DNA of 64,000 nucleotides from positions 25,941 to 89,940 of IMG/VR virus record IMGVR_UViG_3300025070_000022. One strand, given 5' to 3'. Made by a program: the position numbers and the translations under genes. This document shows, one piece after another, positions 33,356 through 63,836 of the stretch. The notes under the pieces are model-generated. The model did no database searches and had not been told where the DNA came from. It saw nothing but the letters and a program-made list of their open reading frames with translations. Position 1 is the stretch's first letter. Every line of letters begins with the position of its first letter. This DNA is from a virus.

Positions 33356-33871
33356 ATCAATCCCTTCCGTCAAATCTACTTTCTATTTTTTTATGAATGT
33401 TTTTAATTAAAGACTCAATGAATGAATTAGAGGTTTTTGAAAACACACTAATTGTACCGTTTTCTTTATTGTGAGAACCTGCATTGTATTCATAGACAGG
33501 ATAAACGCCTTGGTCTTCTGCTTTTAATCTGTATTCTTCGCCAAAATTATCAGCAATTTCATTTATTTCGTCTTCAAACCCTCTGTACCACAAATCATAC
33601 CAATCTACATCTAATGTTATTTGTATTTCTTCAAATGGTTTTGATATAAAGTCGTCATTATGACGGCCAACATTTGGGTTAAAACTCAATATGTAATTAG
33701 GAAAATAAATCATTCCATTGCTGAACTCAAAACCTTCAAGTCCTTCCTTTCTTTCTATTGTATCAACAAGTTCCCGATACAAACCATTCATAAATTCTAC
33801 TTTAGTGTGATAAGGAATGTGGGTTTTACCACCACTGTTATTTTTTAATATTTTTTTCCACATATCAATCC
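33352..33871. repeat. 12-bp direct repeat ACATATCAATCC (33352-33363, 33860-33871)
   Basis: Read directly; flanks ORF 33357-33863. Confidence 0.7.
33357..33863 (-). CDS. WxxILK-tagged accessory protein
   Basis: Starts MWKKILKN; flanked by a 12-bp direct repeat. Confidence 0.7.
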   Translation of the reverse strand: MWKKILKNNSGGKTHIPYHTKVEFMNGLYRELVDTIERKEGLEGFEFSNGMIYFPNYILSFNPNVGRHNDDFISKPFEEIQITLDVDWYDLWYRGFEDEINEIADNFGEEYRLKAEDQGVYPVYEYNAGSHNKENGTISVFSKTSNSFIESLIKNIHKKIESRFDGRD

Positions 33872-35169
33872 AACATATACACTAAGTCTTTCTTACCATC
33901 AATAAGAGCCATCCCTTCTGTACGAAGTAAATCGTACTTCTCCTTCGCTGATATGTTTGCTCCAGTTTCAGCAATCATTATTGTTTGGTCGTCATGTCGT
34001 AGAATTTCTGCCGCAACTAATTTAGTAGTGGCTTCGTGAACTGTAGAAGGTACTCTTCCATCACCAGCAACATAAGAAACAATGATTGAGTTCTTGTTAT
34101 GATAAGGATACTTCTTCAAAAAGAAAATTCTTCCATCGTCGCTCATCATCCAAAAGTCTCCTAAACGCTTCATATCTTCTTTGTCAGTAAAAGGTACAAT
34201 AGAACAGACTGTGGGGATTTCATTGGTAGTGGTAAAGGTTAGTGTACTTGAGGCAGAACCAGTAGCGGCTTTGGAAAGAGTGACGGTAGTTCCACTATCA
34301 ATAGAAGAAATAGTAGTAGAGGCAGGGATATTAGTTCCTGTGACTTCCATATCTACTGCTAATTTACTAGAATCGGCTACAGTCAAACTAGTGCTGGAGT
34401 TACTAGTAGTACAAGACTGTTGAATAGTAGCCTTTAGTGTGCAACCTGCTCCATCATCTCCCGATAATAAAGATGAAATTAAGACCTTAGTACCATCTTG
34501 GTCGTCTTTTTGTGAAAAGAAGAAATCCGAAATATTTAGATTACTAGTTTCTAATTCTTTTGAAGCAGTTGCTCCTGTAAATTGAGAGGTATTCGAGGGA
34601 AATTTCTCATTAATCAAATCAACAATTTCATTGTTAGTGGTCTTTATTCCGAAGGTAGTACAAAACTCATCGTTTGCTAGTGCGGAAACATCATTTTCTG
34701 CTAGTAATTCAAAAGAAACTCCACCGTTAGGTAGTTGGAAAATAATAGAGTGTATATCTCTAAAGTTGTCTAAGAGGGTAATGGACCCTTGAGCCGAGGC
34801 TAATTCTCGATAGTCATTACCTTCCCAAACTCTAAGGCTTACAATCTTTCTAATCTTCATCTGTTGTAGTTGTATAAAACCCACATATCCACCATAATAA
34901 GAAGCAATAGGACTCCTAGTAAATTCAAAATCTTTAAACTCATTCTTCCAAATAATGGGTCTAAAAGAACGGTTAATTTTTTCATCTACCATCCCTTCTA
35001 TTCTTTTAATAATGGAGCCGACTTGTGCGGCAGAAGGATTAGTACCGGAGGTGAAAGGAGTGACTTGTAGTAGGTCAGAAACTGCGGCTATATCTGTGTA
35101 GAAACCTTGTCCTGTAGCATAGTTTGGGTTAATTGAAGTATAGTCACTGGGGGAGGATGCTACTGGCAT
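33865..35169 (-). CDS. Head-tail adaptor/connector
   Basis: YTDIAAV..LL N-terminus and VSYVAG..VPSTVHEATTKLVA C-terminus of gp6/gp15-like adaptors. Confidence 0.65.
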   Translation of the reverse strand: MPVASSPSDYTSINPNYATGQGFYTDIAAVSDLLQVTPFTSGTNPSAAQVGSIIKRIEGMVDEKINRSFRPIIWKNEFKDFEFTRSPIASYYGGYVGFIQLQQMKIRKIVSLRVWEGNDYRELASAQGSITLLDNFRDIHSIIFQLPNGGVSFELLAENDVSALANDEFCTTFGIKTTNNEIVDLINEKFPSNTSQFTGATASKELETSNLNISDFFFSQKDDQDGTKVLISSLLSGDDGAGCTLKATIQQSCTTSNSSTSLTVADSSKLAVDMEVTGTNIPASTTISSIDSGTTVTLSKAATGSASSTLTFTTTNEIPTVCSIVPFTDKEDMKRLGDFWMMSDDGRIFFLKKYPYHNKNSIIVSYVAGDGRVPSTVHEATTKLVAAEILRHDDQTIMIAETGANISAKEKYDLLRTEGMALIDGKKDLVYMLD

Positions 35170-36782
35170 TATATCACCTTCTCTTTTAATTCAGCAAGTT
35201 CTTCTTCTAAATCGTCAAAGTTTCCTAGTATATCACTTATGAAATCCGAGACAAATACTTGTTGTGTCCTTACCTCATCTTTCATTAAGCGGAGATGGGA
35301 CAAACCATAACTAGCCATTCTTTCAGCGTATTCTTCTTTGGTTTCTATTCTTGTTTTTTTGCCTATCTTTACCCTTTTTCCATATAGGAGAGGTCTTTCT
35401 GTAGGGGTGAATTGCCCTACTCTATCGTCACCTTTACCTTTTACTTTTAGATTAGCCATTTGTGTGAATTTTAGTTCAGTATATTGGTGGGCTATTTCAA
35501 TCATAACTTCATTCTTTGCTTTGATATTATCTATAACATCTCTTTCAATAGCACCAGTAAATCCAGCAGACATAAACTTCTTTTGTTTAACTACAGCAGT
35601 CTTAGTTTTCTCCGCTTCTGCTTCAGCCATAGGTATCCGTTGTCGGTCTTTCCATTGAGTATCTAGGGAGTTTAGTTCCTTATACAACTTCTTTGCTTCC
35701 TTTAAATCTTCATCATCAAGAAGACCATCCTTCCTCTTTTTATTGACTAGAGATAGTTCTTCATATGTACTAAGAATATCTATTTTCAAATCTTCTACAG
35801 TCCTTCTAGGCTTAACAGATTTAACATTCTCTACTAAGTTCTTCACTCCTTCTGTGATGAAATCGTGAGATTTTTCTCCGATTACTTGTCTCTCACCCTT
35901 ACTTTTAAAATCCAATGTCAATTTCAAATTATTAGAAATATCTAAATCTAAAACAGATGGCATAATGAGAAGAATGATTTTAGCAATAACTCCTGCATCA
36001 AAATCCAAACTTAAAAATATTTCAGTATCGGTTTTTTTCCTAGATTTAATTTCATCGGAAAATAATTCTTTAACGGCTTCGCCTAATGCATCCTTATCTT
36101 CTAAACTAACAAGTGCCTTTACTCTTTCTGTATCAGTACCGACCCTAACAATTTCTGCAATTCCTTGTTCTCTAAGCACTTGTGATTTTTCTTCCAAGTC
36201 TATTTCTAGAGTGAATTTTTCTCCCTCGAAGAATTTCTCTTCTGTAAATTTACTTTCAGCCTCTTCCAATTTAGCGTCTATTGCATCTAAGAGAAGTTTG
36301 CCTAAACGAACATAGACTCTATCTTGTAATTTAGATATTTGCTCATCATCCAGTTCCTTTGCTTCATCTATATCTTTATCTGTAGGCTTTCTAAACTCGG
36401 AAAAAGAGCCGAAGCCGGAAACTCTTTTCAGTAAATTAGGAGCCTCTAAATCCTTTATTGAATAATTAAGTAGACTTGGAATTATCGGAGTTTTATCGGT
36501 TTCTTTTTTAGAGTAATCAATTATCAATCTATTCTTCAAATTATACGATTCATCATTAACAATATCAGCAATAGTTCTTTGTTCTAAAGGAACTATTATC
36601 TCTTGTAATTTATCAACAAATTCTTGAAAATTTTCTTCTGTTCCATCCAACGAATCCAAATCATCTAAAATTTTAGAATCTGTTGATAAATGTTCATCAA
36701 AAACAAGTTCTACAATATCCTTTTCTAAAGTATCCTTATTTAAATTATAAGTTGTTGTGCGATTCAGTTTGAAGTTGACCAA
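35169..36782 (-). CDS. Hypothetical charged protein
   Basis: 537 aa ORF, no motif recognised. Confidence 0.6.
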   Translation of the reverse strand: MVNFKLNRTTTYNLNKDTLEKDIVELVFDEHLSTDSKILDDLDSLDGTEENFQEFVDKLQEIIVPLEQRTIADIVNDESYNLKNRLIIDYSKKETDKTPIIPSLLNYSIKDLEAPNLLKRVSGFGSFSEFRKPTDKDIDEAKELDDEQISKLQDRVYVRLGKLLLDAIDAKLEEAESKFTEEKFFEGEKFTLEIDLEEKSQVLREQGIAEIVRVGTDTERVKALVSLEDKDALGEAVKELFSDEIKSRKKTDTEIFLSLDFDAGVIAKIILLIMPSVLDLDISNNLKLTLDFKSKGERQVIGEKSHDFITEGVKNLVENVKSVKPRRTVEDLKIDILSTYEELSLVNKKRKDGLLDDEDLKEAKKLYKELNSLDTQWKDRQRIPMAEAEAEKTKTAVVKQKKFMSAGFTGAIERDVIDNIKAKNEVMIEIAHQYTELKFTQMANLKVKGKGDDRVGQFTPTERPLLYGKRVKIGKKTRIETKEEYAERMASYGLSHLRLMKDEVRTQQVFVSDFISDILGNFDDLEEELAELKEKVI

Positions 36783-36794
36783 TGTAAATCACCT

Positions 36795-38071: not shown

Positions 38072-38110
38072 AATTATTCCTCGTTTTCTTTTCTTTGTAT
38101 AGGTTTCTAT

Positions 38111-38569
38111 TTAAAAATACTTTAGCATTTCTTCAAAATGTTCTTTTGCATTATCCCTAGTAGCACTTGTTGTACCATGAAGTCTATCCCCTTCTATTGT
38201 TTTACGCATAGATTCTATCACCTTTTCATCAGGAACTTTTTTCTTTGTAGCATCTTTAAAGTAATCTTCTCCTAATTCAAAGGTTGGCTCTATGCCTCTA
38301 CCCATGCCACCTTCCCCATATTCTTTATCAGCCAACAAATAATAGAATTTTTTACTAGGAATTGCTCGGAATACCTTTGGCTTTCCATCATCTCTAGGAG
38401 TACTCTCTTGTTCGCTACCAAAAAAAGCATATTCTACTGCTTCATCAAAATCAAATGTCCAATGCCTAGTTTCCCCTCTAATTTGAACTCCTTGAAAAAC
38501 CTCATCGTATGTATCAAGTTTAGTCCCGTCAAGTATATGGAAGGGCTTCTTTAGTATATCTTCCCACAT
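38111..38569 (-). CDS. WxxILK-tagged protein, possible ADP-ribosyltransferase fold
   Basis: MWEDILKK; VFQG...HWTFDFDEAVEYA resembles ART-fold strands 1-2. Confidence 0.45.
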   Translation of the reverse strand: MWEDILKKPFHILDGTKLDTYDEVFQGVQIRGETRHWTFDFDEAVEYAFFGSEQESTPRDDGKPKVFRAIPSKKFYYLLADKEYGEGGMGRGIEPTFELGEDYFKDATKKKVPDEKVIESMRKTIEGDRLHGTTSATRDNAKEHFEEMLKYF

Positions 38570-39013
38570 AATAATCAATATCCTTTATCACATATATTCG
38601 GGAATATCCCATGAGCCATAAGTTGAATTTTTATTCCACATATTATCTGCTTCCCCGCTTTGTCCAATATCTCCAACAAAATCATAGTTTTGGTTGCTTA
38701 AAGCATAGGCAATCAAATGATATAGGTTTTCAGCATATCCTCTTCTCATAAATTCAGTTTTTGTACTAACATCTCTTGCTTGAAAAACATCATCGTCTAT
38801 TTTTTCGGCAAAGGCTCTTGTTAATTGAACTCCTTCTTTATCTACAATATTACCGTCTAAAGAATCTCCATGAATATTAACATTCATTTTTAATTTTTCT
38901 TTGCTTTTAGGGTCTAGGTATATAGCAGTCACACTATTCCCTCTAATAACTATATTAGAAATGGGATTTTGCTTTAGTATATCTTGCCACATAATATCAG
39001 TAATCCTTTATCA
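38549..39013. repeat. About 42-bp imperfect direct repeat (38549-38590, 38972-39013)
   Basis: CTTTAGTATATCTT(C/G)CCACATAATA...TCCTTTATCA; flanks the GNAT gene. Confidence 0.8.
38588..38992 (-). CDS. WxxILK-tagged GNAT-family acetyltransferase-like protein
   Basis: MWQDILKQ; motif A-like TEFMRRGYAENLY and QSGEADNMW. Confidence 0.65.
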   Translation of the reverse strand: MWQDILKQNPISNIVIRGNSVTAIYLDPKSKEKLKMNVNIHGDSLDGNIVDKEGVQLTRAFAEKIDDDVFQARDVSTKTEFMRRGYAENLYHLIAYALSNQNYDFVGDIGQSGEADNMWNKNSTYGSWDIPEYM

Positions 39014-39668: not shown

Positions 39669-39896
39669 CTAATGTGTAATGTGGTCCCAAGTATCTGTTA
39701 TCTTTTCTATCATCCAACCCATAATGTTGAGGTCAAAGACTCCCATTATGTTGCCAATAAGAAGTGCTGATAATGTGGCACAAGAACCCCAAAACCAAAA
39801 GCGCATTTTAATAAAAAACATGTCAGCAGAATGCGCCCTGCTTTGGTTATATGCGTAGTCGGATTCGGAGAATCCCATTAAGTCGCCTAGAACCAT
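39669..39896 (-). CDS. Small membrane protein
   Basis: FWFWGSCATLSALLIGNIMGVF transmembrane segment. Confidence 0.7.
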   Translation of the reverse strand: MVLGDLMGFSESDYAYNQSRAHSADMFFIKMRFWFWGSCATLSALLIGNIMGVFDLNIMGWMIEKITDTWDHITH

Positions 39897-39905
39897 TTAA
39901 CCACC

Positions 39906-40304: not shown

Positions 40305-40313
40305 GTAATCACC

Positions 40314-40613: not shown

Positions 40614-40666
40614 AAGTTCACTTCCTAAACTTTGGTAATTGCCTCTTCTTAATGAAGGTTGTGCAA

Positions 40667-41059: not shown

Positions 41060-41068
41060 ACAAACACC

Positions 41069-41662: not shown

Positions 41663-41671
41663 TTTACCACC

Positions 41672-43015
41672 TCAAGCCACATTGGTAATCTTGCCTTGTC
41701 CCTTGAAGAACGAACAACCAACTTCACCAATGGTTCGGTAAAGTGCTTGGTTGCCGAGTCGTCCCACACCGAATGGGTTTCCGTTAGAAACACCGTCTTC
41801 AAAGTATTGAGTCGGCTTAAGAACGGAGAGCCACATATGGTCAGTGTCCAAGAACAACAAGTCGCTAATCCCACTATCTGCGGCATTGAGAGTTGTAGTC
41901 ATATCCTTAACAGGAATCAATGGAATGTCGTAGTAGGTTGCCACACGGAAACCAACTTCTGCACCCTTAATTCCACGAATACCGTTATGGGTAGGAATAA
42001 CTTCCTTACGGTCCATGAATCGCTCTTGGCTTTGTAGCAAGTCAGCGATTGCTTGGATAGTATCGTATCCCGTAAGAATACACTTAGGGGAACCTCCGGA
42101 GATTCTCAAGTTGCGAATCATGTTGTTAAGCAAAGTAAGAGTTAGTGGTCGAACCGAAGATGCGGCGTAAGAACTGTTAAAGTCAACTTCTGCATCTAGG
42201 AAAGAAGCAGTATTTCGGTTATCTCCGTAGATTTTACCTAGATTGTTAGTAGCACTCAATGGGTCAGTGCATAGAACATTGCTGTCCATAGCCGCTAATT
42301 CAGCGTTACTTGTAACGACCTTCAAAAGCGAAGTATAGTTTCGCTCAATATCTCCAAGAGCCGCCGATTCACCGTAGACTTGTAGAGGCATGAGAAGCAT
42401 CTTGTTTTGTGCTTCTGCGTGTGCCTTACCCATGTCTTCACGGATAATAGCCCGAATATCTCCAAGTCCATCATCAATTTGAGCCATTTCCATTGCGAGT
42501 TCGGAAATATCGAACTGGTGTGCAATAGTCTTAGGACTCATAAAGAGTTGAGCGTAAGTTGGAGCCATAGAACCAAGTCCATCTGCCGCAGTAGAAAGGC
42601 CGGCGTTTTCTGGAACACCGCCAATTTGGTCAGCGTGTGGCTTACTACCACCAATTCCAATAACACCAGTGCCAGTAGTATCGCCAGTAATATCCACTTC
42701 TAGTCTAGGGTTAGAACCACCAAATGGTCGGCTCTTAAGAATTCTCCATCCGGAAGAAGCATAAGGTCGCTTTGCTAACATAGCAAGAGCATTTACTTCT
42801 CGGTTTAGCATAGACCAAACTTTTTGTCCGTATAGTTGGTTATACATTGCTGTTCCAGTAATACTGGATGTGCCGCTTGCCGCCGCATCACTAATGTCGT
42901 GTGCAGTGTGTAGTCCTTGAACTGCACCTGCTTGTTTCAACACGGAGTTTCCGCCAAAGGCAGGTAGTCCGTATGTCGCCGCTTCTAAATCTCTAATTGT
43001 GTTAATGTATCCCAT
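41672..43015 (-). CDS. Major capsid protein (HK97 fold)
   Basis: 447 aa downstream of the protease; PKTIAHQFDISE, YDIPLIP, LFLDTDH. Confidence 0.85.
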   Translation of the reverse strand: MGYINTIRDLEAATYGLPAFGGNSVLKQAGAVQGLHTAHDISDAAASGTSSITGTAMYNQLYGQKVWSMLNREVNALAMLAKRPYASSGWRILKSRPFGGSNPRLEVDITGDTTGTGVIGIGGSKPHADQIGGVPENAGLSTAADGLGSMAPTYAQLFMSPKTIAHQFDISELAMEMAQIDDGLGDIRAIIREDMGKAHAEAQNKMLLMPLQVYGESAALGDIERNYTSLLKVVTSNAELAAMDSNVLCTDPLSATNNLGKIYGDNRNTASFLDAEVDFNSSYAASSVRPLTLTLLNNMIRNLRISGGSPKCILTGYDTIQAIADLLQSQERFMDRKEVIPTHNGIRGIKGAEVGFRVATYYDIPLIPVKDMTTTLNAADSGISDLLFLDTDHMWLSVLKPTQYFEDGVSNGNPFGVGRLGNQALYRTIGEVGCSFFKGQGKITNVA

Positions 43016-43025: not shown

Positions 43026-44231
43026 TCAAATGTTACCGCCAACAGCCTTATGAATGTCGCTCCAACTCATGTCAGCAATCTCTTCTGTAGAGAAAACCTT
43101 AGTGGTTGTAGCGGCTTCTGTAGCCTTGCGGATTGTGTTCTTTTCTTCTGTAAGTGACTTACGGAGTTCGGAGAACTCTGCGTTAAGTCGTGCGATTTCG
43201 GATTGTGCATCATATTCTGCCTTAGCAACTAAGTCTGCTCGGTTAGTTTCTTCCGAAGCGAATCTCTTAGCGAAGGTTTCTTCGAGAGTTTCGAGTCCCA
43301 TCTTCTCAAGTTGTTCTGCTCGGTATTGCTCGTAAGCCTTCTCGATGTTTGAAGCACTTAGGTTAAGAGTGCGGAATTCTTCGTTAGCAAAGGTCTTACT
43401 AACCATTCCTTCTTTCTTTGCTTGCGCTCCAGCACTTGCCATAGGTTCACCGGCTCCACCAAGATTAGTTTCGTCGTTTCCATCAAGAGTAGTACCCTTG
43501 GCTTCCGGAGTTGACCCACCTTCTGCGTCTTCGGTATCCATGTATTCATCCATTTTCTCATTCAATGGGTGGCCGCCAGACATTTCCATTGATGGTTCTT
43601 CTTCTTCTTTTCGTAGCGTGTTGACTTCTTCTAGAAGAGTATCTAGTTCTGCCAATGCCTTTTCTAATTTGTTCATTGTTTTGTCCTCCTTTAATATATC
43701 GAACCTCGCTTCGGGGTTGATTCCTTTTTCGCATATTGTGACTTCGTGGAGTTCTAGTTTGCTTATCTCGCTATACTCCCCTAATTCATCGTGGTGTTTC
43801 TTCACTTTTTGTAGTGCTTGTCCACCTATGCTAAAAGACCTCAATGACCCCTTGCGAATTCCTCGGTTTATTTCCTTTGCTTTTTCAATATCATCTCTTA
43901 ATTTAATTACTACGAAGAACCCAACATCATCTACTTGGGTCTTCCATAGTTTTCCATTACTATCTCTATGAGATTCAACTACTTCTCCAACTTGAACATT
44001 GGAGTGATTAGTCATAACATTGCGGAACTTATTGTGTTCCATGAATTTTTTAACTGCCTCATTTAAGGCTTTGAGAGTAATTAAATCATTTTGCTTATCT
44101 ACCATTTCGATAGAAGCATAGCCTCCAATCATTAAATCATCATTCGACGCCTTCAAGATGGAGAAGTCATTCTCCTCCATTGCAGACATAATCGTAGACA
44201 TGATGCTCAAGCCGTCTTGTAGCAAATACAC
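43026..44231 (-). CDS. Prohead protease fused to scaffolding domain
   Basis: IGGYAS..VDKQND, H, SFSIGG, LHEVTIC..GINP; acidic coiled-coil C-terminal half; true start may be ATG at 44201 or 44189. Confidence 0.85.
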   Translation of the reverse strand: MYLLQDGLSIMSTIMSAMEENDFSILKASNDDLMIGGYASIEMVDKQNDLITLKALNEAVKKFMEHNKFRNVMTNHSNVQVGEVVESHRDSNGKLWKTQVDDVGFFVVIKLRDDIEKAKEINRGIRKGSLRSFSIGGQALQKVKKHHDELGEYSEISKLELHEVTICEKGINPEARFDILKEDKTMNKLEKALAELDTLLEEVNTLRKEEEEPSMEMSGGHPLNEKMDEYMDTEDAEGGSTPEAKGTTLDGNDETNLGGAGEPMASAGAQAKKEGMVSKTFANEEFRTLNLSASNIEKAYEQYRAEQLEKMGLETLEETFAKRFASEETNRADLVAKAEYDAQSEIARLNAEFSELRKSLTEEKNTIRKATEAATTTKVFSTEEIADMSWSDIHKAVGGNI

Positions 44232-46731: not shown

Positions 46732-47214
46732 TCAGTAAAGATTAAGAGAGTCTGCCATATAAGTTTCCGATTGTAAAATAGCCTTAACACCCGCTTCTTC
46801 ACCCTTAGTCCAATGGCCGTCTTCGATTAGTTTAGGTAGTTTTTTCAATCTATTAATCATTCGAGTAAATTTTTCAACTCTTTTAGGGTCGTTATACTTG
46901 CCATATGAAAGTCTTTCTTGCTTAATTCCATCATTTAGCAGTTGGATAGTATTTTCTATGGTTATGTCGGACTTACCAAAAGTATCTCCAGCAAGACCAT
47001 ATCCGGAATGAGTACCTGTATTGTTCTCAATCTTAGTATCATCTTTTTCTGCCTTGGGTTCCTTGGTCTTAACTTCGGGGGCTTCTATTTCTAACGGTAG
47101 AGTTTCTCTACCCTCTTGTTGTAAGACTTCCTTTGCTTTACGAACCAATCTAATTGCTCTACTAATTTGTGCTTCCTCTTCTGTCATTTTTTCCGGCATA
47201 TCAGTTCCTCCCAT
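46732..47214 (-). CDS. Hypothetical head-module protein
   Basis: ORF between portal and ligase. Confidence 0.6.
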   Translation of the reverse strand: MGGTDMPEKMTEEEAQISRAIRLVRKAKEVLQQEGRETLPLEIEAPEVKTKEPKAEKDDTKIENNTGTHSGYGLAGDTFGKSDITIENTIQLLNDGIKQERLSYGKYNDPKRVEKFTRMINRLKKLPKLIEDGHWTKGEEAGVKAILQSETYMADSLNLY

Positions 47215-47428
47215 TTACGAACTTTTCAATATCATTCCAACTCATCTTATGGATAGCATCAGCATCCGGTACAGATTGATTTGACATAGATGGAGTAGGG
47301 CTATCGACAACAACAAAGCCCGACTTCATAAGCAAGTTATCTTTGTTGTAGACTGCTTGTTCTAGAGTCTTAATTCTACCAACCAATTCCTTTAGAATAA
47401 TCAGCATGTCTTCATTACTTTCACTCAT
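47201..47428 (-). CDS. Small head-module protein with C-terminal MSWNDIEK motif
   Basis: C-terminus resembles the scaffold C-terminus MSWSDIHK. Confidence 0.65.
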   Translation of the reverse strand: MSESNEDMLIILKELVGRIKTLEQAVYNKDNLLMKSGFVVVDSPTPSMSNQSVPDADAIHKMSWNDIEKFVNGRN

Positions 47429-47774
47429 CTCTCAAGTCCCCCTTTCTCTTAGGATAGACGACTTCTCGTAGTTGACGATACAAGACTTCGTACTCCTTAC
47501 GAAGTTTGCTAGATAGGGCCACCATATCAATGTTCCTTTCGTCAATACCGTCGAACTTCTTTTTCATCTTATCATCGGATTTGACCAAATCTAATTCTCT
47601 TAGCATGTCAATGAGTTCACCCATTCGAGTGAAATCTTGGCCAAAGTATTCGGTTGGTTCTGCCGATTGTAGAGTCTTCTTCAATCGCTTTCTCTTCTTT
47701 TCATCTAGTGATTCCAAAATTGGACTGTTTTCTTTTTCTATCATATCGGGTTGTTTTAGTATTCTTTCCCACAT
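47421..47774 (-). CDS. WxxILK-tagged protein
   Basis: MWERILKQ. Confidence 0.7.
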   Translation of the reverse strand: MWERILKQPDMIEKENSPILESLDEKKRKRLKKTLQSAEPTEYFGQDFTRMGELIDMLRELDLVKSDDKMKKKFDGIDERNIDMVALSSKLRKEYEVLYRQLREVVYPKRKGDLRDE

Positions 47775-49696: not shown

Positions 49697-49914
49697 TTGT
49701 TTTCTGTTCTTCTTCTTTTCTTAGCCGGTAGTTGGACTACATCGGGAGTATCTGCACTACTTCTAGTAGGGCGATGAGTAGTATCGGGCGGTAGTCCTCC
49801 TACAGAATAGTCTCTAGATTTCTTAGTAGTTCTATCTTCTGCGGCTCGTTGAGAACGGACCTGTGCCAATTCTTTAGCCAATCTTCTTTCTTTTTGTGCT
49901 GTGTCTTCTGTCAT
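49690..49914 (-). CDS. Hypothetical basic protein
   Basis: ORF coupled to the portal gene. Confidence 0.55.
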   Translation of the reverse strand: MTEDTAQKERRLAKELAQVRSQRAAEDRTTKKSRDYSVGGLPPDTTHRPTRSSADTPDVVQLPAKKRRRTENKW

Positions 49915-51557
49915 TATGGTATTCTCCTTTCTGTTCTTGAATCCACATTTTGATTACCTGCGTCTGCTGGCAATCCGGTCATTCGCTTATCGGGGCCTAC
50001 GCTCATGGATGGTTTATTTCTTGTGGTAGCGGGATTCTCTTGAGGCTTACCTCTTCCTTCTAACATTTCTCTATTCATCTCATTAATATCTCTTTGGTCA
50101 AAGTTAGACCCTGCTAAACCATCCATACCGGATTGTGCTTTGTTTTCTTGTCCTTCTTGGGGAGGCTCCTCTTTAGGCTCCGGCTTATTGAAGGTAAAGT
50201 TTCCATCCTCATCCATCTCTACTTCAAATCCTAAGTTCTTAACAGAAGCCGCAATGTTGACTTCTAATTCCCTTCGTCTAAGTTCAGCAATTTCATCTTC
50301 TTCTTCCGAAGGAGGTAGTTTCAAATCCCAATCAGTAATTCCAAATTGCTTTGTTAAGAACGGGAAGACATAATTATTGTAGACATTTTGTGCCATTTGA
50401 ACAGCACGATTAGTGACTAATATTTGCATACCTTCGTTGTTAAGTCCACCGCTAGTAGTGTTGTCAGCCATGAAGACTTTACTAACCCCGTAGAAAGCAG
50501 AAATTCTATCTCTCAAATCATCCTTAACAGAAACATATTCCATTTCTTTAAGACTATCCATGAACTTAATCCATTCAACTGAACCCTTGCCATTGTCGGC
50601 TTCGATTCCCATAACTGGAATATAGTGGGGGTCTTGTTCCATTCTTTCTTTTACACTTCTCCAAAAACTAGCCATAGAGTCCATGTTTCTAGTCTGTACT
50701 GCTAGTAACCCTCTAGGCATTCTGCTCTTGGTATAGGAAGAATTGACATAATTTTCCATTGCTATTAAAGTCATTATATGATTGAATAGAGTCATAACTG
50801 GAGAATGGCCATATAGCCTACTTGGGCTGTATTTACTAAAATGTAGGACTTCACCTTTAATGTAGTACTGCTCATCTCCATTTGCTCTATTGACATAATG
50901 TATAGGGTGTAAATTACTGCCACATTCACCACAAGGTTCGTGTGGCTCCTGTGCAATAAAATTTCTATGATTTATACAAGTGAATCCCTTAGTTCCTCTA
51001 ACTCCAAGTTCATCAGCGTAAATTGCCATAGTAACAGGGTCGCCTCTGAACAACTCTTTGATTCTATGCATACGAATTTTACCATTACCATCTAAGTAAT
51101 ATTCCTTGACAAGAACAATGTAAGCATCATCCATAATGTTTAGGTCGTCTTCTAATTCTTTAAGAACATCAATGAATAACTGTTCGGATTGATTGATGTA
51201 TCCCTCAATAAACTTCTCGGCATATTCTAATTGTTTTGGGTCAGGTTTAGATAATTCCAAGGAACCACATCTAGCACATTCACTAACTGGTCTTTTGTGG
51301 GTCTTTTGACAAGAGTTACATCGGGCTTCGTAAGCCTTCTCCCAAACATATCCTCTTCGGAAAATTTCTTGTTTTAGTTGAGTAATACAAGTACGAACAA
51401 TCACAGACTGTTGGGTGACATTGTAGACCATTGGGGCTGTCATCATGTAAGAGTTCTCACGCTCTTGTATTCCGATGTTGTAGACCTGCCTATCCGCCGG
51501 TTTGGGAGTAGACCTTCTAAACAGTCCACTTATTCCGAATCTTCGCTTTTCTGCCAT
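49914..51557 (-). CDS. Portal protein with Zn-ribbon insertions
   Basis: DLNIMDDAY, EVLHF, RLYGHSP, MPRGLL, ISAFYGV; between terminase and protease. Confidence 0.85.
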   Translation of the reverse strand: MAEKRRFGISGLFRRSTPKPADRQVYNIGIQERENSYMMTAPMVYNVTQQSVIVRTCITQLKQEIFRRGYVWEKAYEARCNSCQKTHKRPVSECARCGSLELSKPDPKQLEYAEKFIEGYINQSEQLFIDVLKELEDDLNIMDDAYIVLVKEYYLDGNGKIRMHRIKELFRGDPVTMAIYADELGVRGTKGFTCINHRNFIAQEPHEPCGECGSNLHPIHYVNRANGDEQYYIKGEVLHFSKYSPSRLYGHSPVMTLFNHIMTLIAMENYVNSSYTKSRMPRGLLAVQTRNMDSMASFWRSVKERMEQDPHYIPVMGIEADNGKGSVEWIKFMDSLKEMEYVSVKDDLRDRISAFYGVSKVFMADNTTSGGLNNEGMQILVTNRAVQMAQNVYNNYVFPFLTKQFGITDWDLKLPPSEEEDEIAELRRRELEVNIAASVKNLGFEVEMDEDGNFTFNKPEPKEEPPQEGQENKAQSGMDGLAGSNFDQRDINEMNREMLEGRGKPQENPATTRNKPSMSVGPDKRMTGLPADAGNQNVDSRTERRIP

Positions 51558-51615: not shown

Positions 51616-51975
51616 TCAAGAACCCTTACGCCACTTCTTGTTTTTCTTTTCTTTGGTTTTACTAGGACTCCACTTTACCTTGTCAGCCCAATAAGCGGCA
51701 GACATTTTACCCCGCTTAATGTTCTTCTTATGTCGTGATTTGAATGCCTTTCTTTGCCCTGCGGTTTGATTGGTCTTAACGCCCTTTTGTCCAAATTTAA
51801 TATATTTGTACTTTCCACCTTCGGAAGCCATAACATGATGTGACTTGCCAGAATTGTCATTTAGCCTTTGTGGAGAATTAAAAGACCTCAATCCCTTAGC
51901 CTTCATTCTTTTACGGGCCGCTTCTCTTGGTCCGGATTTAGGTTTTCTCTTCAACAAAATATCTTCCCAACTCAT
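51616..51975 (-). CDS. WxxILK-tagged basic protein
   Basis: MSWEDILLKR; IKFGQKG...AFKSRH...SAAYWADKVKW, a pattern recalled from small viral proteins. Confidence 0.7.
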   Translation of the reverse strand: MSWEDILLKRKPKSGPREAARKRMKAKGLRSFNSPQRLNDNSGKSHHVMASEGGKYKYIKFGQKGVKTNQTAGQRKAFKSRHKKNIKRGKMSAAYWADKVKWSPSKTKEKKNKKWRKGS

Positions 51976-51984: not shown

Positions 51985-52302
51985 TCACAAAAACGAATAA
52001 CGGGTTTCTGTTTTAATCCCCATTAATTTACCATCAACAACAATTCTTTGTTTTTCTTTTTTAGTTTCTAACAGGTTTCTGTTCTTCAAATATTTTATGA
52101 TGTAATTATGTATCCTATCTGATTTAATACTTTTATGTAGTTTAGAATACCTGCTTCTTACATCTTCTATGAATATATCAAATTCCTTTATGTTTAGGGA
52201 TTGCCCTTTTAATAGTCGGGCTTCTTGAATAATAATCTTGTTTAGAAAGTCGTAGTCAATTTTCCTTACCCTCCCCCGTTTAATTACTTTTTCCCAACTC
52301 AT
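51985..52302 (-). CDS. WxxILK-tagged basic protein
   Basis: MSWEKVIKR. Confidence 0.65.
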   Translation of the reverse strand: MSWEKVIKRGRVRKIDYDFLNKIIIQEARLLKGQSLNIKEFDIFIEDVRSRYSKLHKSIKSDRIHNYIIKYLKNRNLLETKKEKQRIVVDGKLMGIKTETRYSFL

Positions 52303-52700
52303 TCTTCTCCCCTCAATTGGTTTTCTTTAGAAGTCTTATCATCATCAATTGGGCCACCTTTAGCCCAAGTGTAGCAGGTTCTAGCCGAATGGCATTTGAA
52401 ATCGTGCATCCAACAGTAGCCTAAGCGACCATCTTTATCTGTAGAAAGTGGCATACATTCATCCATTCTTGGAGATATGTCAAATGCAATACAGTTACTA
52501 CAATTAGATTTCTTAGCAACATCAGCAGTAGTATTCCATTTCTTAGCATACTCCTCCCAATACTTTTCGTCGTTTAGATTAAGAGGCCCGTATTGAATAT
52601 GTTTTTCTTTTACTGCCCTGTCCCTATTCTTAGTATTGAGTTTCAAATCTTGGGTAGCCAAGGGGCATTCTAGTTTCTTTAATATAATTGTCCAATCCAT
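52299..52700 (-). CDS. WxxILK-tagged Cys-rich (metal-binding) protein
   Basis: MDWTIILKK; CPLATQD...CSNC...GYCWMHDFKC...C. Confidence 0.7.
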   Translation of the reverse strand: MDWTIILKKLECPLATQDLKLNTKNRDRAVKEKHIQYGPLNLNDEKYWEEYAKKWNTTADVAKKSNCSNCIAFDISPRMDECMPLSTDKDGRLGYCWMHDFKCHSARTCYTWAKGGPIDDDKTSKENQLRGEE

Positions 52701-52704
52701 AATA

Positions 52705-52911
52705 TCACTTCGGGCTTAGTCCATACTTTCTAACCACATTTCTCAACGCAATTCTTTTCTTAGTTTCATTATCCCTTCCACTAAGGTACGGATTATTATA
52801 TTCTTTTTTGTATTCCTCAATATGCTCAGGTGAGAAGTGATAGGTCTTACCATCTATAGTAAATCTTTGACCGATTGCTCTTATTGTTTTTATAACCTCT
52901 TGCCAACTCAT
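52705..52911 (-). CDS. WxxILK-tagged small protein
   Basis: MSWQEVIKT. Confidence 0.6.
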   Translation of the reverse strand: MSWQEVIKTIRAIGQRFTIDGKTYHFSPEHIEEYKKEYNNPYLSGRDNETKKRIALRNVVRKYGLSPK

Positions 52912-53300
52912 GCTGTAAATGGCCCCCTTCTTTTACTAGTTGGCTCATGTGTGTAAAAATCTCCATCTTTGTGAAGAAACAACTTACCTTCCTTTATTAG
53001 TTCAGATAGGGCTTTATCTAAATCCTTTTGACTAGCAATATGCTTCAAATCTTTCATGGCTAAAGCACCTCCTTGTTTGGTCTTGGCAGAAAGGATTTTT
53101 TTCTTAATACCCTTCATTGTATTTTTTGCTTTTTTATTTAACAAATCAAAATCTTCACGGTTGATTTTGCCATCTTTATTTCTATCCAAGTGCTTACTTT
53201 GTTTAGGTGTTAATTTCTTATTTACACATTCTTCACAGTTGCATGGCTTACCCATCTTTTCTGTTCCGCAGTGCCTCTTTAGTATATCTTTCCAAGCCAT
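52908..53300 (-). CDS. WxxILK-tagged protein with EF-hand-like loop and winged-helix-like tail
   Basis: MAWKDILKR; HC..CNCEEC; DRNKDGKINREDF. Confidence 0.65.
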   Translation of the reverse strand: MAWKDILKRHCGTEKMGKPCNCEECVNKKLTPKQSKHLDRNKDGKINREDFDLLNKKAKNTMKGIKKKILSAKTKQGGALAMKDLKHIASQKDLDKALSELIKEGKLFLHKDGDFYTHEPTSKRRGPFTA

Positions 53301-53301: not shown

Positions 53302-53574
53302 TTATCTACCTTCTACTTTTTTGTAGGCTTTCTTTCCAGCCTTTGTTCTAGGAACATGTTGTTTCCCCTTTCTAGTACCGGCTCTTTTCTTAGCACTCTC
53401 TCGCCTTTTTTGTTCGGGAGTAAGGGAATCTCTTACAGATTTAGGACCATACCTTCCACCTTCTGTAGTAAGGTTGTCCCAATCTTCCTTGTTCCACTCA
53501 ACCATGTCTTTCTGCGCTTCTGTTAAAGCCTTCAAAACATCTTTCCAACTACTTCTTGTTGACAAAGCCACCAC
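53302..53574 (-). CDS. C-terminal half of a DUF5872-like protein
   Basis: SWKDVLKA; W..EDW...RYGP...LTPEQ...KKRAG..KGKQHVP. Confidence 0.55.
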   Translation of the reverse strand: MVALSTRSSWKDVLKALTEAQKDMVEWNKEDWDNLTTEGGRYGPKSVRDSLTPEQKRRESAKKRAGTRKGKQHVPRTKAGKKAYKKVEGR

Positions 53575-53785
53575 CTGCCTTTTGGTAAAGTCTATTCAAC
53601 TCTTGAGATTTTCTAGCAGACCATTTGTATTTTCCAGTACCGTGAGTGTTCTTGGCCCACAATCTCCTATGTATTCTCTCTCTAAGTTTAGGATTAGTAT
53701 AAGTTCCTTTAGGAGCCTTGTAAGTATGCTTAGGAACCTTCCTTTTGCTCCTACTATTTTTCTTGAGAATCTCTTGCCATGTCAC
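53549..53785 (-). CDS. WxxILK-tagged N-terminal half of a DUF5872-like protein
   Basis: GTG start, MTWQEILKK; YTNPKLRERI...WSARKSQ...YQKAGGGF. Confidence 0.6.
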   Translation of the reverse strand: MTWQEILKKNSRSKRKVPKHTYKAPKGTYTNPKLRERIHRRLWAKNTHGTGKYKWSARKSQELNRLYQKAGGGFVNKK

Positions 53786-55507: not shown

Positions 55508-56941
55508 TCAAAAGTTTAGTCCCATTATGCCGCCACGCCTATTATTTACAGGCGCATCAAATATCCCCAAATCATCTAACAATAAGAAGTTTTCACTAAT
55601 GGTCTTGGTAGCCGCATTAGCCAATGCTAAACTCATTACCATATCGTCGTGTGCGCCAACTCCCTCAAACTTACCTTTCTGCGTAATAGAAAACATAGAT
55701 AATTCTTCAATCAATGCAGAAGTAACTCTTCTACTTTCTTCGTTAGCATAAGGTAGGTTTATTTTTTCATTCTCAAAATTCATTTGTAGATTCAAGATAA
55801 TATCCTGTTTCTTTTTTCTTGTTGTATTGAAATCGTGGACATTTAAATCAGAAATGTTTCTCAATTCTTGTGTAAAGGATTTAGCGAATACATTTGTTTC
55901 AAACAAAATGACTTCCGGTTGAAAGATTTTACCTATCAATCTAACTTTTTGTAGATTCTCCCTAAACTCTACATTCTTAGCCCTGTCTACATAAACAACA
56001 CTTTTGTTATCTTCTTCATCTACTTCCAATACAGTGATTACATTGTAGTCGCCGTCAGTAGAGATAGCAGGGTCAATACCAACATAGTACTTGTAACCCT
56101 CTCTACGAGTGGGCTTCAAGACTAAACTTTTGTTCTTAGACCTCTCTAAGTATTCGGGATTGAATAGCGAAGTACCAGTGGATACAGGAACACAAAGGTA
56201 TTCCCTTGTGAATTTAAGCGAGCCTATTTCTGCCTTCCTAGCCATGAGAGCCTCATAGTCCCAACGATTAGGCCAAAGAGGTTCATTAAGAGAGTTAAAA
56301 CAAGGATACTTTCTAACTGTATATGCCTCGTTTTCCTCTAGTTGAGTGTAAATATCCGTGTAAGAGAAAGGAGTTCCAATAACACGAAGAGAAGCGGAGT
56401 GGTGTAGAGTTGGTATCATGTCACCATAAAACCAATCTGTAACCTTTTGAATTGCAGTTAAACTAAACTCTTTCAAAGGGTCGTCAATAATAATCTCTTG
56501 AGGGTGAAGACCACGAATCTGTGAACCAACAGAACGCTCAAGAATTTGATTTCCATTAGTGAGAGTAATGTTTCCAATAGCCCAACCCTTAGCAGGTTTG
56601 AAATGTTTAATTGTAGGGTTATTGAATACCTTGTCAATGTCTCTCATGTGAACCATAGTCTGCTTTTGGTTAGAGGAAATGTAGAGCATTTGATATGGGG
56701 GTGGTTGGAAGATTAAATTCCAAACAACCCATGAGTGCATGAAGACAGACTTACCGTGACCTCGACTACAAATGATTACTGTTCTTTGAGTCTGCCCCAT
56801 TAACTCAAGCCACTCTTGTTGATGACTTGCGAAATCCCAACCTAGAACATTTTCAAAGAAATAAGGAAATGAATTCTTAGATAGTTCTAAGTCCATTTGC
56901 CGTTCTAGGTTTAACCCTGCAATGTCAGACATATCGCTCAC
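55508..56941 (-). CDS. terL: Terminase large subunit
   Basis: HQ, SRGHGKS, IIIDD, VIGTP, GIDPA, HDDMVMSLALA. Confidence 0.95.
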   Translation of the reverse strand: MSDMSDIAGLNLERQMDLELSKNSFPYFFENVLGWDFASHQQEWLELMGQTQRTVIICSRGHGKSVFMHSWVVWNLIFQPPPYQMLYISSNQKQTMVHMRDIDKVFNNPTIKHFKPAKGWAIGNITLTNGNQILERSVGSQIRGLHPQEIIIDDPLKEFSLTAIQKVTDWFYGDMIPTLHHSASLRVIGTPFSYTDIYTQLEENEAYTVRKYPCFNSLNEPLWPNRWDYEALMARKAEIGSLKFTREYLCVPVSTGTSLFNPEYLERSKNKSLVLKPTRREGYKYYVGIDPAISTDGDYNVITVLEVDEEDNKSVVYVDRAKNVEFRENLQKVRLIGKIFQPEVILFETNVFAKSFTQELRNISDLNVHDFNTTRKKKQDIILNLQMNFENEKINLPYANEESRRVTSALIEELSMFSITQKGKFEGVGAHDDMVMSLALANAATKTISENFLLLDDLGIFDAPVNNRRGGIMGLNF

Positions 56942-56952
56942 CCCTTCTTCTA

Positions 56953-57279
56953 CTATTCTTGTTCTTTTATGAAATCGACCTTTCTTTTAAAAGCCTGATA
57001 AAAATTCGACAAAGCCAGTCTAATATCAAAAATATCATCGTATGGCCAATCGTCCATATAATCTTCCATCTTGGCAATTTGCCTACTGATAAAAAATATG
57101 ATGTCTTCTTCGTAGTTTTCTCCTTCAAGTACTCTTTTAATATCAGATAACCTACCGGCAAACGACTCCCAATGACCGCCATATTGATTATGTCCTTGTC
57201 GGATTTTGTTTTCTAAATCCTCGTATCTTTCTAATAGGGTTTCTGTAGTTTCAAACTTTAATATTCCTTTCCAACTCAT
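56953..57279 (-). CDS. WxxILK-tagged acidic protein
   Basis: MSWKGILKF, ATG at 57279 after GGTGA. Confidence 0.65.
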   Translation of the reverse strand: MSWKGILKFETTETLLERYEDLENKIRQGHNQYGGHWESFAGRLSDIKRVLEGENYEEDIIFFISRQIAKMEDYMDDWPYDDIFDIRLALSNFYQAFKRKVDFIKEQE

Positions 57280-57284
57280 GTTAA

Positions 57285-61594: not shown

Positions 61595-61643
61595 ATTGTT
61601 TCCCCGAATAAAGGCAATAGTCCACTCTATAATAAATGAACTG

Positions 61644-61805
61644 TCAATCTAACTTTGTCTGCTGTGTTGCAGTATCTTCCTTCGGTGGCGGAGTTTCCTT
61701 GGGTTCATTTCCCCATTCTTCTGCTGGAATTGTAGATACGGTAGCACCTTCTGTAAGTTTTTTGGGGAGTTTGGTTTGTCTTTTGAGAACACTTTTCCAA
61801 CTCAT
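61644..61805 (-). CDS. WxxILK-tagged microprotein, 53 aa (not in ORF track)
   Basis: MSWKSVLKRQTKLPKK...TQQTKLD, AGGAG upstream. Confidence 0.6.
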   Translation of the reverse strand: MSWKSVLKRQTKLPKKLTEGATVSTIPAEEWGNEPKETPPPKEDTATQQTKLD

Positions 61806-62152
61806 TGTAATCTCTCCTACATCAATCTCTTTGCTTCAATCAAATACATATACTGTTTTCTTAATCCCATCTTTGAAGTAACGGCCCCTGCTAGTTTCTT
61901 TAAATTCTTTTGAAAACTGAAAAATTCGGGAGAGTAAAGGTCATTTAACTCATCTTTATCTTCAACCCTTTCGTAGTATTCATCAAATTTATTCAATAGG
62001 GCCTCACCCGCTTGCTTTATTTTGGGGTCTTCATTGTAGGCCATAAAGAAAAGTAATTCGTGAACATGGCCATGTAAAGGGGCATCTCCATCTTCAACAT
62101 ACCAAGTATTTTTTAGTATATTCTCCCAACTCATTGTAATCTCTCCTGCATC
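61797..62152. repeat. 27-bp direct repeat with one mismatch (61797-61823, 62126-62152)
   Basis: CCAACTCATTGTAATCTCTCCT(A/G)CATC; flanks ORF 61817-62134. Confidence 0.85.
61817..62134 (-). CDS. WxxILK-tagged accessory protein
   Basis: MSWENILKN; flanked by a 27-bp repeat. Confidence 0.7.
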   Translation of the reverse strand: MSWENILKNTWYVEDGDAPLHGHVHELLFFMAYNEDPKIKQAGEALLNKFDEYYERVEDKDELNDLYSPEFFSFQKNLKKLAGAVTSKMGLRKQYMYLIEAKRLM

Positions 62153-62784
62153 TTTTTCTTAATGTCAAGCCAAATTTCCGGATTGTTCTGTGCTAACACT
62201 TCTTGAACAACTTGCATCTGTGCGACAATAATTGTATCTTGTCGCTTGTGGACAAGTTTGCCTTTGAACTCCATCATGTATTTTAAAGACTCACGAACTT
62301 CTCTAGCCAACTTCACTAGAGCGTCTAATTCCTTAGCATCTAAATCATCTCTAGATGCTATCTCGGTGATTTTATCATCGAGCAATTGAATGTTATTTGA
62401 TAGCATATCGACCTCATTCAAATCTTTCTTGGCAATAATAGCCGCCGCAGACTTTTGAACAACGGGCTGTAAATGGTGCTTAACATGTCGATGGACTTGG
62501 GCCTTAGAAATTCCAAGGCCTACGCTGACCTCCTCGGCTGTGATTAGACCCTCATGCAATTGCCTTTCGTATTCTGCCCTCATTGGGTCTACACAAATGG
62601 CACACTTTGGATTACTACTTTGCACATATTCTCCCATGTGATTTCTTTGATGCTGTGCAGAAGTACCGCTTCTCCAGTTCATCTTTTCATCTAATTCATC
62701 GGGAGTAATAGTAAGAGATTCTAAGTCGGCTTCCATAGAATCAACATCACTGTGTTGACAAAAGGCACAACTCTTTCTTCTCAT
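62131..62784 (-). CDS. Putative terminase small subunit
   Basis: Two CxxC + HTH + HxxxH repeats followed by a coiled coil; upstream of terL. Confidence 0.5.
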   Translation of the reverse strand: MRRKSCAFCQHSDVDSMEADLESLTITPDELDEKMNWRSGTSAQHQRNHMGEYVQSSNPKCAICVDPMRAEYERQLHEGLITAEEVSVGLGISKAQVHRHVKHHLQPVVQKSAAAIIAKKDLNEVDMLSNNIQLLDDKITEIASRDDLDAKELDALVKLAREVRESLKYMMEFKGKLVHKRQDTIIVAQMQVVQEVLAQNNPEIWLDIKKKMQERLQ

Positions 62785-63026
62785 TTCTGCACACCCGTAC
62801 TAATGATTTCAAATTCTTCTGTCTTATTACCAAGCATCTCTAATGAAACATAGATAGGTAGGTCGAAGCCAATGATAGGACGAGAGGAAGAATCGTAAAT
62901 CATCTTAGTCTTCACTGCGAACTTCTTTTCAATCATTTTAATCAGTTCGTCTAAACTTCCCGTCTTTCCAACGATTTCCTCTATTTCATCTAGAGTCATT
63001 TCTTTTAGTATGTTTTCCCAAGTCAT
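62781..63026 (-). CDS. WxxILK-tagged protein
   Basis: MTWENILKE, ATG at 63026 after GGTGA. Confidence 0.65.
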   Translation of the reverse strand: MTWENILKEMTLDEIEEIVGKTGSLDELIKMIEKKFAVKTKMIYDSSSRPIIGFDLPIYVSLEMLGNKTEEFEIISTGVQK

Positions 63027-63036
63027 ATTATTCACC

Positions 63037-63456
63037 CTATATCCCAAATTTTCCTTGAACATTAGGGTTGCCTTTTGAGGCTTGAATCATATCACCCATT
63101 CTTTCAACTTTGAAGCCAAATTGTTCTAATACAGGAATACCATGTTGTTGCACAAAATTAGCATCACCAAATAGGTCTTGTTGCATTTCCCATATTAACG
63201 CTCTATTACCGCTTCCTTTTCTTCCCCTACCTGTAAAATTTTCAGGAACTACCTTAATGGCAAATTTCCCATTTTTTTGAAATTCGGGGTCTTTTTTATA
63301 CGCACTAATTATTTCTGCCATATGTTTTTTTACATTTTCAATCTTCATTTTTTGATTATCAGTAAGTTTAGGTTCAGCAGAAGTCTTGTTTCTTCTAAAC
63401 CTACCAAACGGTGCTTTCTCTATTCCGTCTTGTTTTAGTATATCTTTCCAAGTCAT
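63037..63456 (-). CDS. WxxILK-tagged protein
   Basis: MTWKDILKQ. Confidence 0.7.
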   Translation of the reverse strand: MTWKDILKQDGIEKAPFGRFRRNKTSAEPKLTDNQKMKIENVKKHMAEIISAYKKDPEFQKNGKFAIKVVPENFTGRGRKGSGNRALIWEMQQDLFGDANFVQQHGIPVLEQFGFKVERMGDMIQASKGNPNVQGKFGI

Positions 63457-63836
63457 TCTTTCACTTCCCTATTAAAAATAATTTCAAACTCTTTTTCTCT
63501 TCTATCTGTTCCTTTCAGTTCCATGACTCTAGCAGTGTAATTGAATAGATTAGGATAGTTGTAAATCTCAGCACCTCCTATGGGAAATCTGTTTTTACTC
63601 GACAACTCTATTGAGATAGCAAGGTGAACTTTATTCGGTCTTTTACCCGTTGTTAAGAACCATTCTGCTAAAGACTTGTTTGGCGTATCCTCATTAAAAA
63701 CATCATCATTATCATAATACATAGTTGATAGTTTGCCCCTGCCTTTCACTATCTCCATGACTCTATTCTCTACTTCTTTTTTATCTAAGTAGTCGTAGTT
63801 TATTGTATCGCTTTTCAATATGTTTTTCCAAGTCAT
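63453..63836 (-). CDS. WxxILK-tagged protein
   Basis: MTWKNILKS, ATG at 63836. Confidence 0.7.
   Translation of the reverse strand: MTWKNILKSDTINYDYLDKKEVENRVMEIVKGRGKLSTMYYDNDDVFNEDTPNKSLAEWFLTTGKRPNKVHLAISIELSSKNRFPIGGAEIYNYPNLFNYTARVMELKGTDRREKEFEIIFNREVKE

Follow-up and report, generated by a model that had tools for sequence, protein, structure and literature searches.

A portable N-terminal peptide on small accessory proteins of a magrovirus: a candidate signal for capsid loading

INTRODUCTION

In phage T4, the proteins IPI-III and Alt carry a short N-terminal capsid targeting sequence (CTS), which loads them and which gp21 then cuts off (Mullaney and Black 1996, described in a section of PMC7411985). 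The scaffold of phage 80alpha ends in 16 residues, a helix and hook (RIIK), that bind the N-arm of the coat protein, and the unrelated SaPI1 protein CpmB copies this tail to enter the procapsid (sections of PMC5644958). The C-terminal extension of the SPN3US prohead protease has been hypothesised to bring the protease into the prohead (a section of PMC7411985). Here we analyse a peptide of the form M-x-W-x-x-(I/V)-(L/I)-K (the tag), which recurs at the start of unrelated proteins in a 64,000-nucleotide stretch of viral DNA (the window). The window comprises bases 25941-89940 of the IMG/VR record IMGVR_UViG_3300025070_000022, which is 89,940 bases long in total and is rated 100% complete.

Few viruses of surface-ocean archaea are as abundant as the magroviruses, none of which, to our knowledge, has been cultured. 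The record fits this group because it has a ligase gene inside the structural module and a genome of ~90-100 kb, both of which are given for magroviruses in a section of Philosof et al. 2017 (PMC5434244). The minus strand of the window, from ~64000 down to 16400, carries the terminase, portal, ligase, S78 protease-scaffold, capsid and tail tube genes. An earlier note on this DNA had proposed that the tag is an address label loading interchangeable effectors into the procapsid, and we followed up this proposal computationally in the record and in its relatives.

RESULTS

The tag is confined to the strand of the head genes

We scanned all six frames of the window with the pattern W..[IVLM][ILVM]{1,2}K. 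There were 25 matches, 16 of which lay directly behind minus-strand start codons, at 63836, 63456, 63026, 62134, 61805, 57279, 53785 (a GTG), 53300, 52911, 52700, 52302, 51975, 47774, 38992, 38569 and 33863. A 17th copy, SWKDVLK, occupies residues 9-15 of the open reading frame (ORF) at 53302-53574. The remaining matches were one within the capsid protein and seven either in frames without genes or at non-start positions on the plus strand. Outside the window, the array continues in the first 5.5 kb of the record: six further tags there are strict, three (MSWKDTLT, MSWKDELR and MTWKDELK) are degenerate, and the gene start at 63026 recurs in a repeat. This brings the genome to 26 tagged proteins, encoded by roughly one gene in four.

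Using a crude ORF call, 19 of 81 minus-strand ORFs were tagged compared with 0 of 59 on the plus strand (Fisher p = 1.8e-5). The tagged genes share operons with the head genes, since 23 of 25 begin -18 to +4 nt from the end of the upstream ORF; this operon position suggests that they are late genes. The tag is restricted to the strand and the operons of the head, tail and packaging genes. Behind the lysine the proteins have little in common: amongst the 26, only 1 of 325 pairs of bodies was alike at E < 1e-3.

As relatives we used the best 80 of 378 IMG/VR loci found via the portal protein. At least one tag was present in 75 of the 80, with 350 matches on the portal strand (13 of them an internal segment of the capsid protein) and 1 on the opposite strand. 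The full tag on distinct ATG-started frames of at least 40 codons was found in 294/9,523 cases on the portal strand and in 0/1,946 on the opposite strand. In a wider strand test with ten near-complete tag-bearing records from several lineages, the strict DNA pattern gave 105 matches on one strand; the other strand had a single match, in a frame with a stop, and the pattern read backwards matched three times. The tag was absent from all 8,810 starts in 1.01 Mb of a sister lineage. Chance is excluded by the zero counts on the opposite strand and in the sister lineage and by the 3 backward matches set against 105 forward ones. The earlier note had described a shared tag on about 17 minus-strand proteins with unrelated bodies, and on no plus-strand replication gene. 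This held, with the 16 gene starts and the single near-N-terminal copy exactly where it had placed them.

The 366 tagged proteins collected from the relatives fell into 97 BLAST body clusters, or 96 once an artefact of the capsid protein was dropped. The carriers are a large, fast-changing set of small accessory proteins, whose genes lie in the operons for head, packaging and tail.

Selection acts on the peptide and not on the DNA

We compared codon use over 304 distinct tag contexts. Leucine was encoded by TTA (22%), TTG (16%), CTT (17%), CTC (13%), CTA (28%) and CTG (3%), with CTA and CTC mildly over-used; all three isoleucine codons and both lysine codons were used, in roughly background proportions. 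To measure the constraint on the residues, one position was omitted from the pattern each time. The expected residue was recovered in 294/308 cases for K, 303/315 for I/V/L, 294/307 for L/I and 134/135 for W, so that each position is 95-99% constrained. Conservation at the DNA level only, against which the earlier note had set its reading, is excluded because synonymous codons vary whilst the residues of the tag are constrained.

These data bear on the possibility that the conserved 24 nt are a DNA or RNA element, either a recombination joint or a translation-start enhancer, with the peptide as a by-product. Such an element would accord with the mild over-use of CTA and CTC, with cassette boundaries that coincide with tags and with imperfect repeats at the ends of the record that differ by two tagged cassettes. 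However, third codon positions are free, six leucine codons are used, and the I/V and L/I swaps are conservative in the protein. Tags also persist internally and as C-terminal look-alikes, where a role at a start site makes no sense, and recombination at tags is likely to be a side effect rather than the cause of their conservation. We consider a nucleic acid element very improbable.

The end repeats match at genome 1-165 and 88810-88975 (97.6%), and in a second block at genome 272-440 and the last 169 bases (98%). Compared with genome bases 1-440, the right-end repeat (window 62870-64000) holds two extra tagged genes, those starting at 63836 and 63456. This looks as if strain variants had gained or lost cassettes, or as if the assembly were mixed. 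Between close genomes, homology stops within ~20 nt of tag starts. We read the tags as doubling as joints for cassette exchange, which would be a consequence of their conservation rather than its purpose.

The tag is also gained and lost within body families. In a small Cys-rich family, 32 ORFs are untagged and 1 meets the strict pattern; the spacing from Met to Trp varies from 0 to 3 residues. Common descent without present function, in which a single ancestral gene start was duplicated and the bodies behind it diverged beyond recognition, would suit the many tagged genes that adjoin in arrays. It would leave unexplained why ~96 body families of varied length and composition keep eight residues at 95-99% when all else differs, and why some families hold both tagged and untagged members; we regard it as extremely improbable. 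Judged by the codon and residue counts, selection on the tag acts at the level of the peptide, and what it maintains is a portable signal, M-x-W-x-x-(I/V)-(L/I)-K.

In some relatives the match is internal (L038:7812-8285, L036:9145-9708, L010:1-495, L036:3294-4394 and L075:3120-3908). In one arrangement K-K-S-W-Q-E-I-L-K connects a 45-residue module (MPIRKVKGGYKWGSKG...) with either of two bodies, and elsewhere a GNAT-like N-terminal domain is followed by the tag and then by a body. On their arrangement, the internal tags look like fusions made at the tag, or polyproteins.

The tag resembles the C-terminal tails of two head-module proteins

The prohead protease gene (43026..44231, minus strand; Peptidase_S78, Pfam E = 2.3e-10) continues into a C-terminal scaffold region that ends in MSWSDIHKAVGGNI, encoded at 43026-43070. 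In 60/60 relatives this tail reads M-(S/D/E/N)-W-x-x-I-H-(K/R) followed by about six residues. The region ahead of it diverges to 57% identity amongst the same relatives, and the tail is the most conserved part of the C-terminal extension of the protease. Many distant protease-scaffold fusions (32-57% identical; from 150 representatives at 50% identity) end M-S-W-x-(D/E)-(I/V)-(H/N/E), and the tail Trp is invariant in an alignment of 12 distant representatives. A second tail, MSWNDIEKFVNGRN, encoded at 47201-47245, ends p75, a 75-residue head-module protein (47201..47428, minus strand), and is like both the tag and the scaffold tail. It was kept in 40/40 distinct C-termini among the matches listed.

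We built a position-specific scoring matrix (PSSM) from the tags of the relatives only and scanned it over 28,482 positions of this genome. Away from N-termini, the top matches were the p75 tail (16.8 bits), the near-N-terminal tag (15.0 bits) and the scaffold tail (13.5 bits); the next match scored 9.7 bits. The likeness of the tag to the scaffold and p75 tails favours a capsid-loading label like the T4 CTS. In the sister lineage the protease-scaffold is ~45% identical and both tailed proteins, including a counterpart of p75, are present.

Other C-terminal look-alikes were seen. A 324-residue protein (window 63833-64000, minus strand, and genome 273-1247) ends ..IKSWKEVLL, and small ORFs in several relatives (L049, L063, L066, L075 and L080) end ..GGWR(R/S)VLRKA.

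A possible cut site at the end of the tag

The major capsid protein (41672..43015, minus strand; PHROG major head protein, E = 5.7e-21) has LLK or VLK in its N-arm. The lysine, Lys27, is invariant in 42 diverse capsid proteins, and the hydrophobic-Leu-Lys motif is present in 169/169 homologues. These include the tagless lineage, and we therefore rejected the N-arm LLK as a trait specific to tag-bearing lineages. An AlphaFold model of the capsid protein had a mean predicted local distance difference test (pLDDT) score of 64.8; residues 1-90 scored below 50 and the LLK site could not be placed. Sequence searches of PDB with the protease-scaffold and the capsid protein gave no match. The internal capsid segment M-W-L-S-V-L-K (residues 394-400; window 41816-41836, minus strand) was rejected as a tag, as the model predicts a beta strand at 394-399 (pLDDT 83-89); the tagless lineage reads L-W-F-S-T-G-I at this position.

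According to a section of the report on phage phi12, its HK97-like protease cuts after K or R (PMC8569155). As the end of the tag matches the invariant LLK of the capsid N-arm, cleavage after the tag lysine is plausible from the motif.

The same data could mean that the tag is nothing other than a protease recognition or cut site, for the S78 prohead protease or another enzyme, which sets when accessory proteins are activated or removed, with no packaging involved. The invariant lysine that ends the tag behind two hydrophobic residues, its counterpart in the N-arm, the K/R specificity and the internal tags between two modules, which resemble polyprotein joints, would all suit this. However, the W at -5 is as invariant as the K and is unneeded for a simple cut site, and the scaffold tails have the W-x-x-I core but, in several lineages, not LK. 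As a matter of general knowledge, prohead proteases act within the procapsid, so that a substrate would have to be inside anyway. We think it rather unlikely that the tag is only a cut site.

A ThiF/E1-like gene and the invariant lysine

A ThiF/E1-like gene (55.7 bits) lies outside the window at genome 19011-19559 on the plus strand. ThiF/E1 was found in 9 of the 10 tag-bearing near-complete records and in 0 of the 5 tagless ones, a contrast that in effect amounts to two clades and in which the tagless records are 76-90% complete. This would suit another role, in which the tag docks its carriers to a partner other than the shell: the virus-encoded ubiquitin-like system with the lysine as acceptor, the virus chaperonin or a host protein. 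In that case the tag and the scaffold tails would be alike because both bind something other than the shell. Consistent with this, the tag lysine is invariant, and the tag keeps LK while the scaffold tails vary. Set against this, one 96%-complete record with 9 tags has no ThiF, no acidic residue is fixed two places after the lysine, and the tagged genes lie within head operons and not beside the E1 gene. We give a partner of this kind a small chance.

More specifically, the invariant lysine of the tag, and that of the scaffold tail in this lineage, could be an acceptor or handle for a viral module of ubiquitin-like protein, E1 and JAMM, which we find quite improbable. If true, W-x-x-I-L-K would be a viral 'modify me' motif that links a virus-borne ubiquitin-like system either with assembly of the capsid or with the turnover of about one in four viral proteins.

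Bodies behind the tag

In a Pfam search, none of the 17 tagged proteins of the window reached the cut-off. The earlier note had seen GNAT-like, ART-like and EF-hand-like bodies amongst them. The GNAT-like assignment (38588-38992) is a language-model lead (score 0.95) with no Pfam support, and the 5 close homologues of this protein were uninformative; the ART-like one (38111-38569) is a weak language-model hint (rank 17, score 0.87), again with no Pfam support; and the EF-hand and dockerin matches of 52908-53300 lie under the Pfam cut-off. Thus, of the address label that the note had described, the peptide-level and portable character, the confinement to the head, tail and packaging strand and the likeness to scaffold tails stood, whilst the GNAT and ART bodies were left without Pfam support.

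Pfam was also run on 20 of the 97 tagged clusters from the relatives, and PAP2 was the sole domain above the cut-off. This tagged PAP2 phosphatase family has 12 members, one of which (L071:285-857) scored 39.2 bits against a cut-off of 27.2. An AlphaFold model of the 52299-52700 family was unusable (pLDDT 49.7), and P0132, used as a query against viral contigs, returned no relatives. Two ideas about the bodies were rejected. The 20 residues after the tag are barely more polar than the rest (0.695 vs 0.65), which does not suggest a linker, and the median isoelectric point of tagged proteins (9.5) does not discriminate them as basic cargo from crude untagged small ORFs (9.4).

Arrangement of the tagged genes

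All tagged genes of the window are on the minus strand. At the right end, MTWKNILK (63453..63836, 127 residues) and MTWKDILK (63037..63456, 139 residues) have no Pfam match and are missing from the left-end repeat copy. They are followed by MTWENILK (62781..63026, 81 residues), whose gene start is repeated at genome bases 1-165, and by MSWENILK (61817..62134, 105 residues) and MSWKSVLK (61644..61805, 53 residues), both from the six-frame scan. MSWKGILK (56953..57279, 108 residues), with family members in L002 and L003, lies immediately upstream of the large terminase subunit (55508..56941, minus strand), for which Pfam Terminase_6N and Terminase_6C both score slightly under their cut-offs.

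The next group begins with the Lys-rich (M)TWQEILK protein (53549..53785, 78 residues, GTG start), a member of a family of 22. The ORF with SWKDVLK at residues 9-15 (53302..53574) overlaps it by 26 nt; relatives conserve ..VVALS.. ahead of the W, and translation of the ORF may begin at a GTG of its own or result from a frameshift. Then come the Cys-rich MAWKDILK protein (52908..53300, 130 residues) with the EF-hand/dockerin-like loop, MSWQEVIK (52705..52911, 68 residues, six-frame scan), MDWTIILK (52299..52700, 133 residues), which belongs to a conserved Cys/His-rich family, MSWEKVIK (51985..52302, 105 residues, six-frame scan) and the basic MSWEDILLK protein (51616..51975, 119 residues). The last is immediately upstream of the portal gene (49914..51557, minus strand; Pfam Phage_portal E = 8.1e-10, 38.8 bits against a cut-off of 39.1).

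MWERILK (47421..47774, 117 residues, six-frame scan) precedes the p75 gene; downstream are the ATP-dependent DNA ligase (44239-46725, minus strand) and the protease-scaffold and capsid genes. In 56 of 76 related ORFs the MWERILK family starts with MTWDYYEEG.. or MTWDFYEEGKEIILK, as though an insertion of eight residues had separated the W of the tag from its ILK. MWQDILK (38588..38992, 134 residues; GNAT-like by language-model features only) and MWEDILK (38111..38569, 152 residues; a weak ART hint only) adjoin one another, and MWKKILK (33357..33863, 168 residues) lies amid the tail genes, which include the tail tube protein (30184-32424, minus strand).

A marine metatranscriptome run gave short contigs with 90-97% identity to this genome. 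One RNA contig of 634 bases, ~97% identical, covers window 47156-47786 and bridges the p75 gene and the tagged gene at 47774. These contigs give support neither way, as they cannot give level, timing or strand and may include DNA carry-over.

DISCUSSION

By analogy with the T4 and 80alpha systems, the tag probably loads a changing set of small accessory proteins into the capsid, a reading in which our confidence is about even. In this model, the tag would form a short amphipathic helix with W, I and L on one face, a copy of the core of two C-terminal tails, that of the S78 protease-scaffold fusion and that of the 75-residue protein. The helix would dock its carrier to the inner side of the assembling procapsid. 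The prohead protease could then clip the tag after hydrophobic-Leu-Lys, the motif that is invariant in the capsid N-arm, and the cargo would stay in the head and could enter the host along with the DNA.

Several observations weigh against capsid loading, of which packaging, cleavage and injection of the tagged proteins are all steps that we infer. In other tag-bearing lineages the tails read INA, IHN, VHL or IHL, and the tags still end LK or IK. The core common to tag and tail is only M-x-W-x-(D/E)-(I/V), and the lack of co-variation at +4/+5 argues against strict mimicry of one binding site; the shift of tag and tail at position -1 is weak and confounded by ancestry. Where Ser or Thr is at position 2 the first Met is probably removed, and the match of this Met to the tail may vanish in the mature protein. 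The tail does not need the tags, since the sister lineage has both tailed scaffold proteins and no tags. F-x-I-L-K at the protease/scaffold junction (199/200), a candidate cut site, is not evidence for cleavage, because in distant homologues the S78 fold itself has this segment as its final strand. Some tags in relatives are internal, behind an N-terminal module of 45 to 250 residues. One tagged family has a PAP2 domain, which is usual in membrane proteins and odd for capsid cargo, and ~26 cargo species are many for the head of a 90-kb genome.

If capsid loading is nonetheless correct, a quarter of magrovirus genes, so far 'hypothetical', would gain a common address, the capsid interior, and would probably be delivered to the host. 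The variable cassettes would be candidate host take-over or anti-defence factors against Poseidoniales. Capsid targeting by a clip-off peptide, as in T4-like phages, would have evolved independently in an archaeal virus that has an HK97-type protease, with the scaffold tail as its template. There would also be practical uses: a natural eight-residue tag for loading proteins into HK97-fold shells, and a simple sequence rule that predicts virion-borne proteins in metagenomes. Term searches of magrovirus papers found no mention of the tag motif, and a literature search pairing 'capsid targeting sequence' with 'archaeal virus' found no paper; supplements were not covered in either.

Comparison with known systems

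Encapsulins have shells of the HK97 fold, on whose inner face a short terminal peptide docks cargo of diverse kinds. Their cargo peptides are mostly C-terminal and have other sequences, and their shells are without portal, scaffold or protease. The magrovirus does not belong with them: it has a portal, a protease-scaffold and a terminase, and its tags are N-terminal. A closer relation is seen with the proteases of HK97, for which Duda et al. in 2013 reportedly described a C-terminal targeting tail, and of SPN3US. As here, a C-terminal extension is thought to deliver the protease to the prohead; the difference is that in those phages no set of further proteins with a copy of the tail is known.

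The likeness to the T4 CTS is in a short N-terminal peptide common to unrelated proteins (26 carriers here, with 1/325 body pairs alike), in carrier genes that lie in the head region and vary as cassettes, and in an end motif, here the candidate cut motif hydrophobic-Leu-Lys, that also occurs in the capsid protein. The role expected by analogy would be the same, prohead loading and then removal. Strictly, the magrovirus tag falls outside the T4 system, since the proteases are of different families, Peptidase_S78 (HK97 type) here and the gp21 type in T4. The sequence also differs, W-x-x-I-L-K with a terminal Lys in place of the terminal Glu of T4, and the tag here resembles scaffold tails. With ~26 carriers to a genome and, across 80 relatives, ~96 families, the scale is far above that of T4, the host is an archaeon and the system is known here from sequence alone.

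With 80alpha and CpmB, the magrovirus has in common a conserved terminal peptide on the scaffold protein (kept in all 60 relatives, with p75 as a second tailed protein), which may likewise be an amphipathic helix ending hydrophobic-hydrophobic-Lys, as RIIK does in the sections of the 80alpha report cited above. There, an unrelated protein carries the scaffold peptide and so enters the procapsid; here, the tag may be such a copy and, by analogy, may act likewise. In 80alpha and CpmB, as described in those sections, the peptide is C-terminal on both proteins and serves the capsid size control of a satellite. In the magrovirus the candidate copies are N-terminal and are carried by many proteins of the virus itself.

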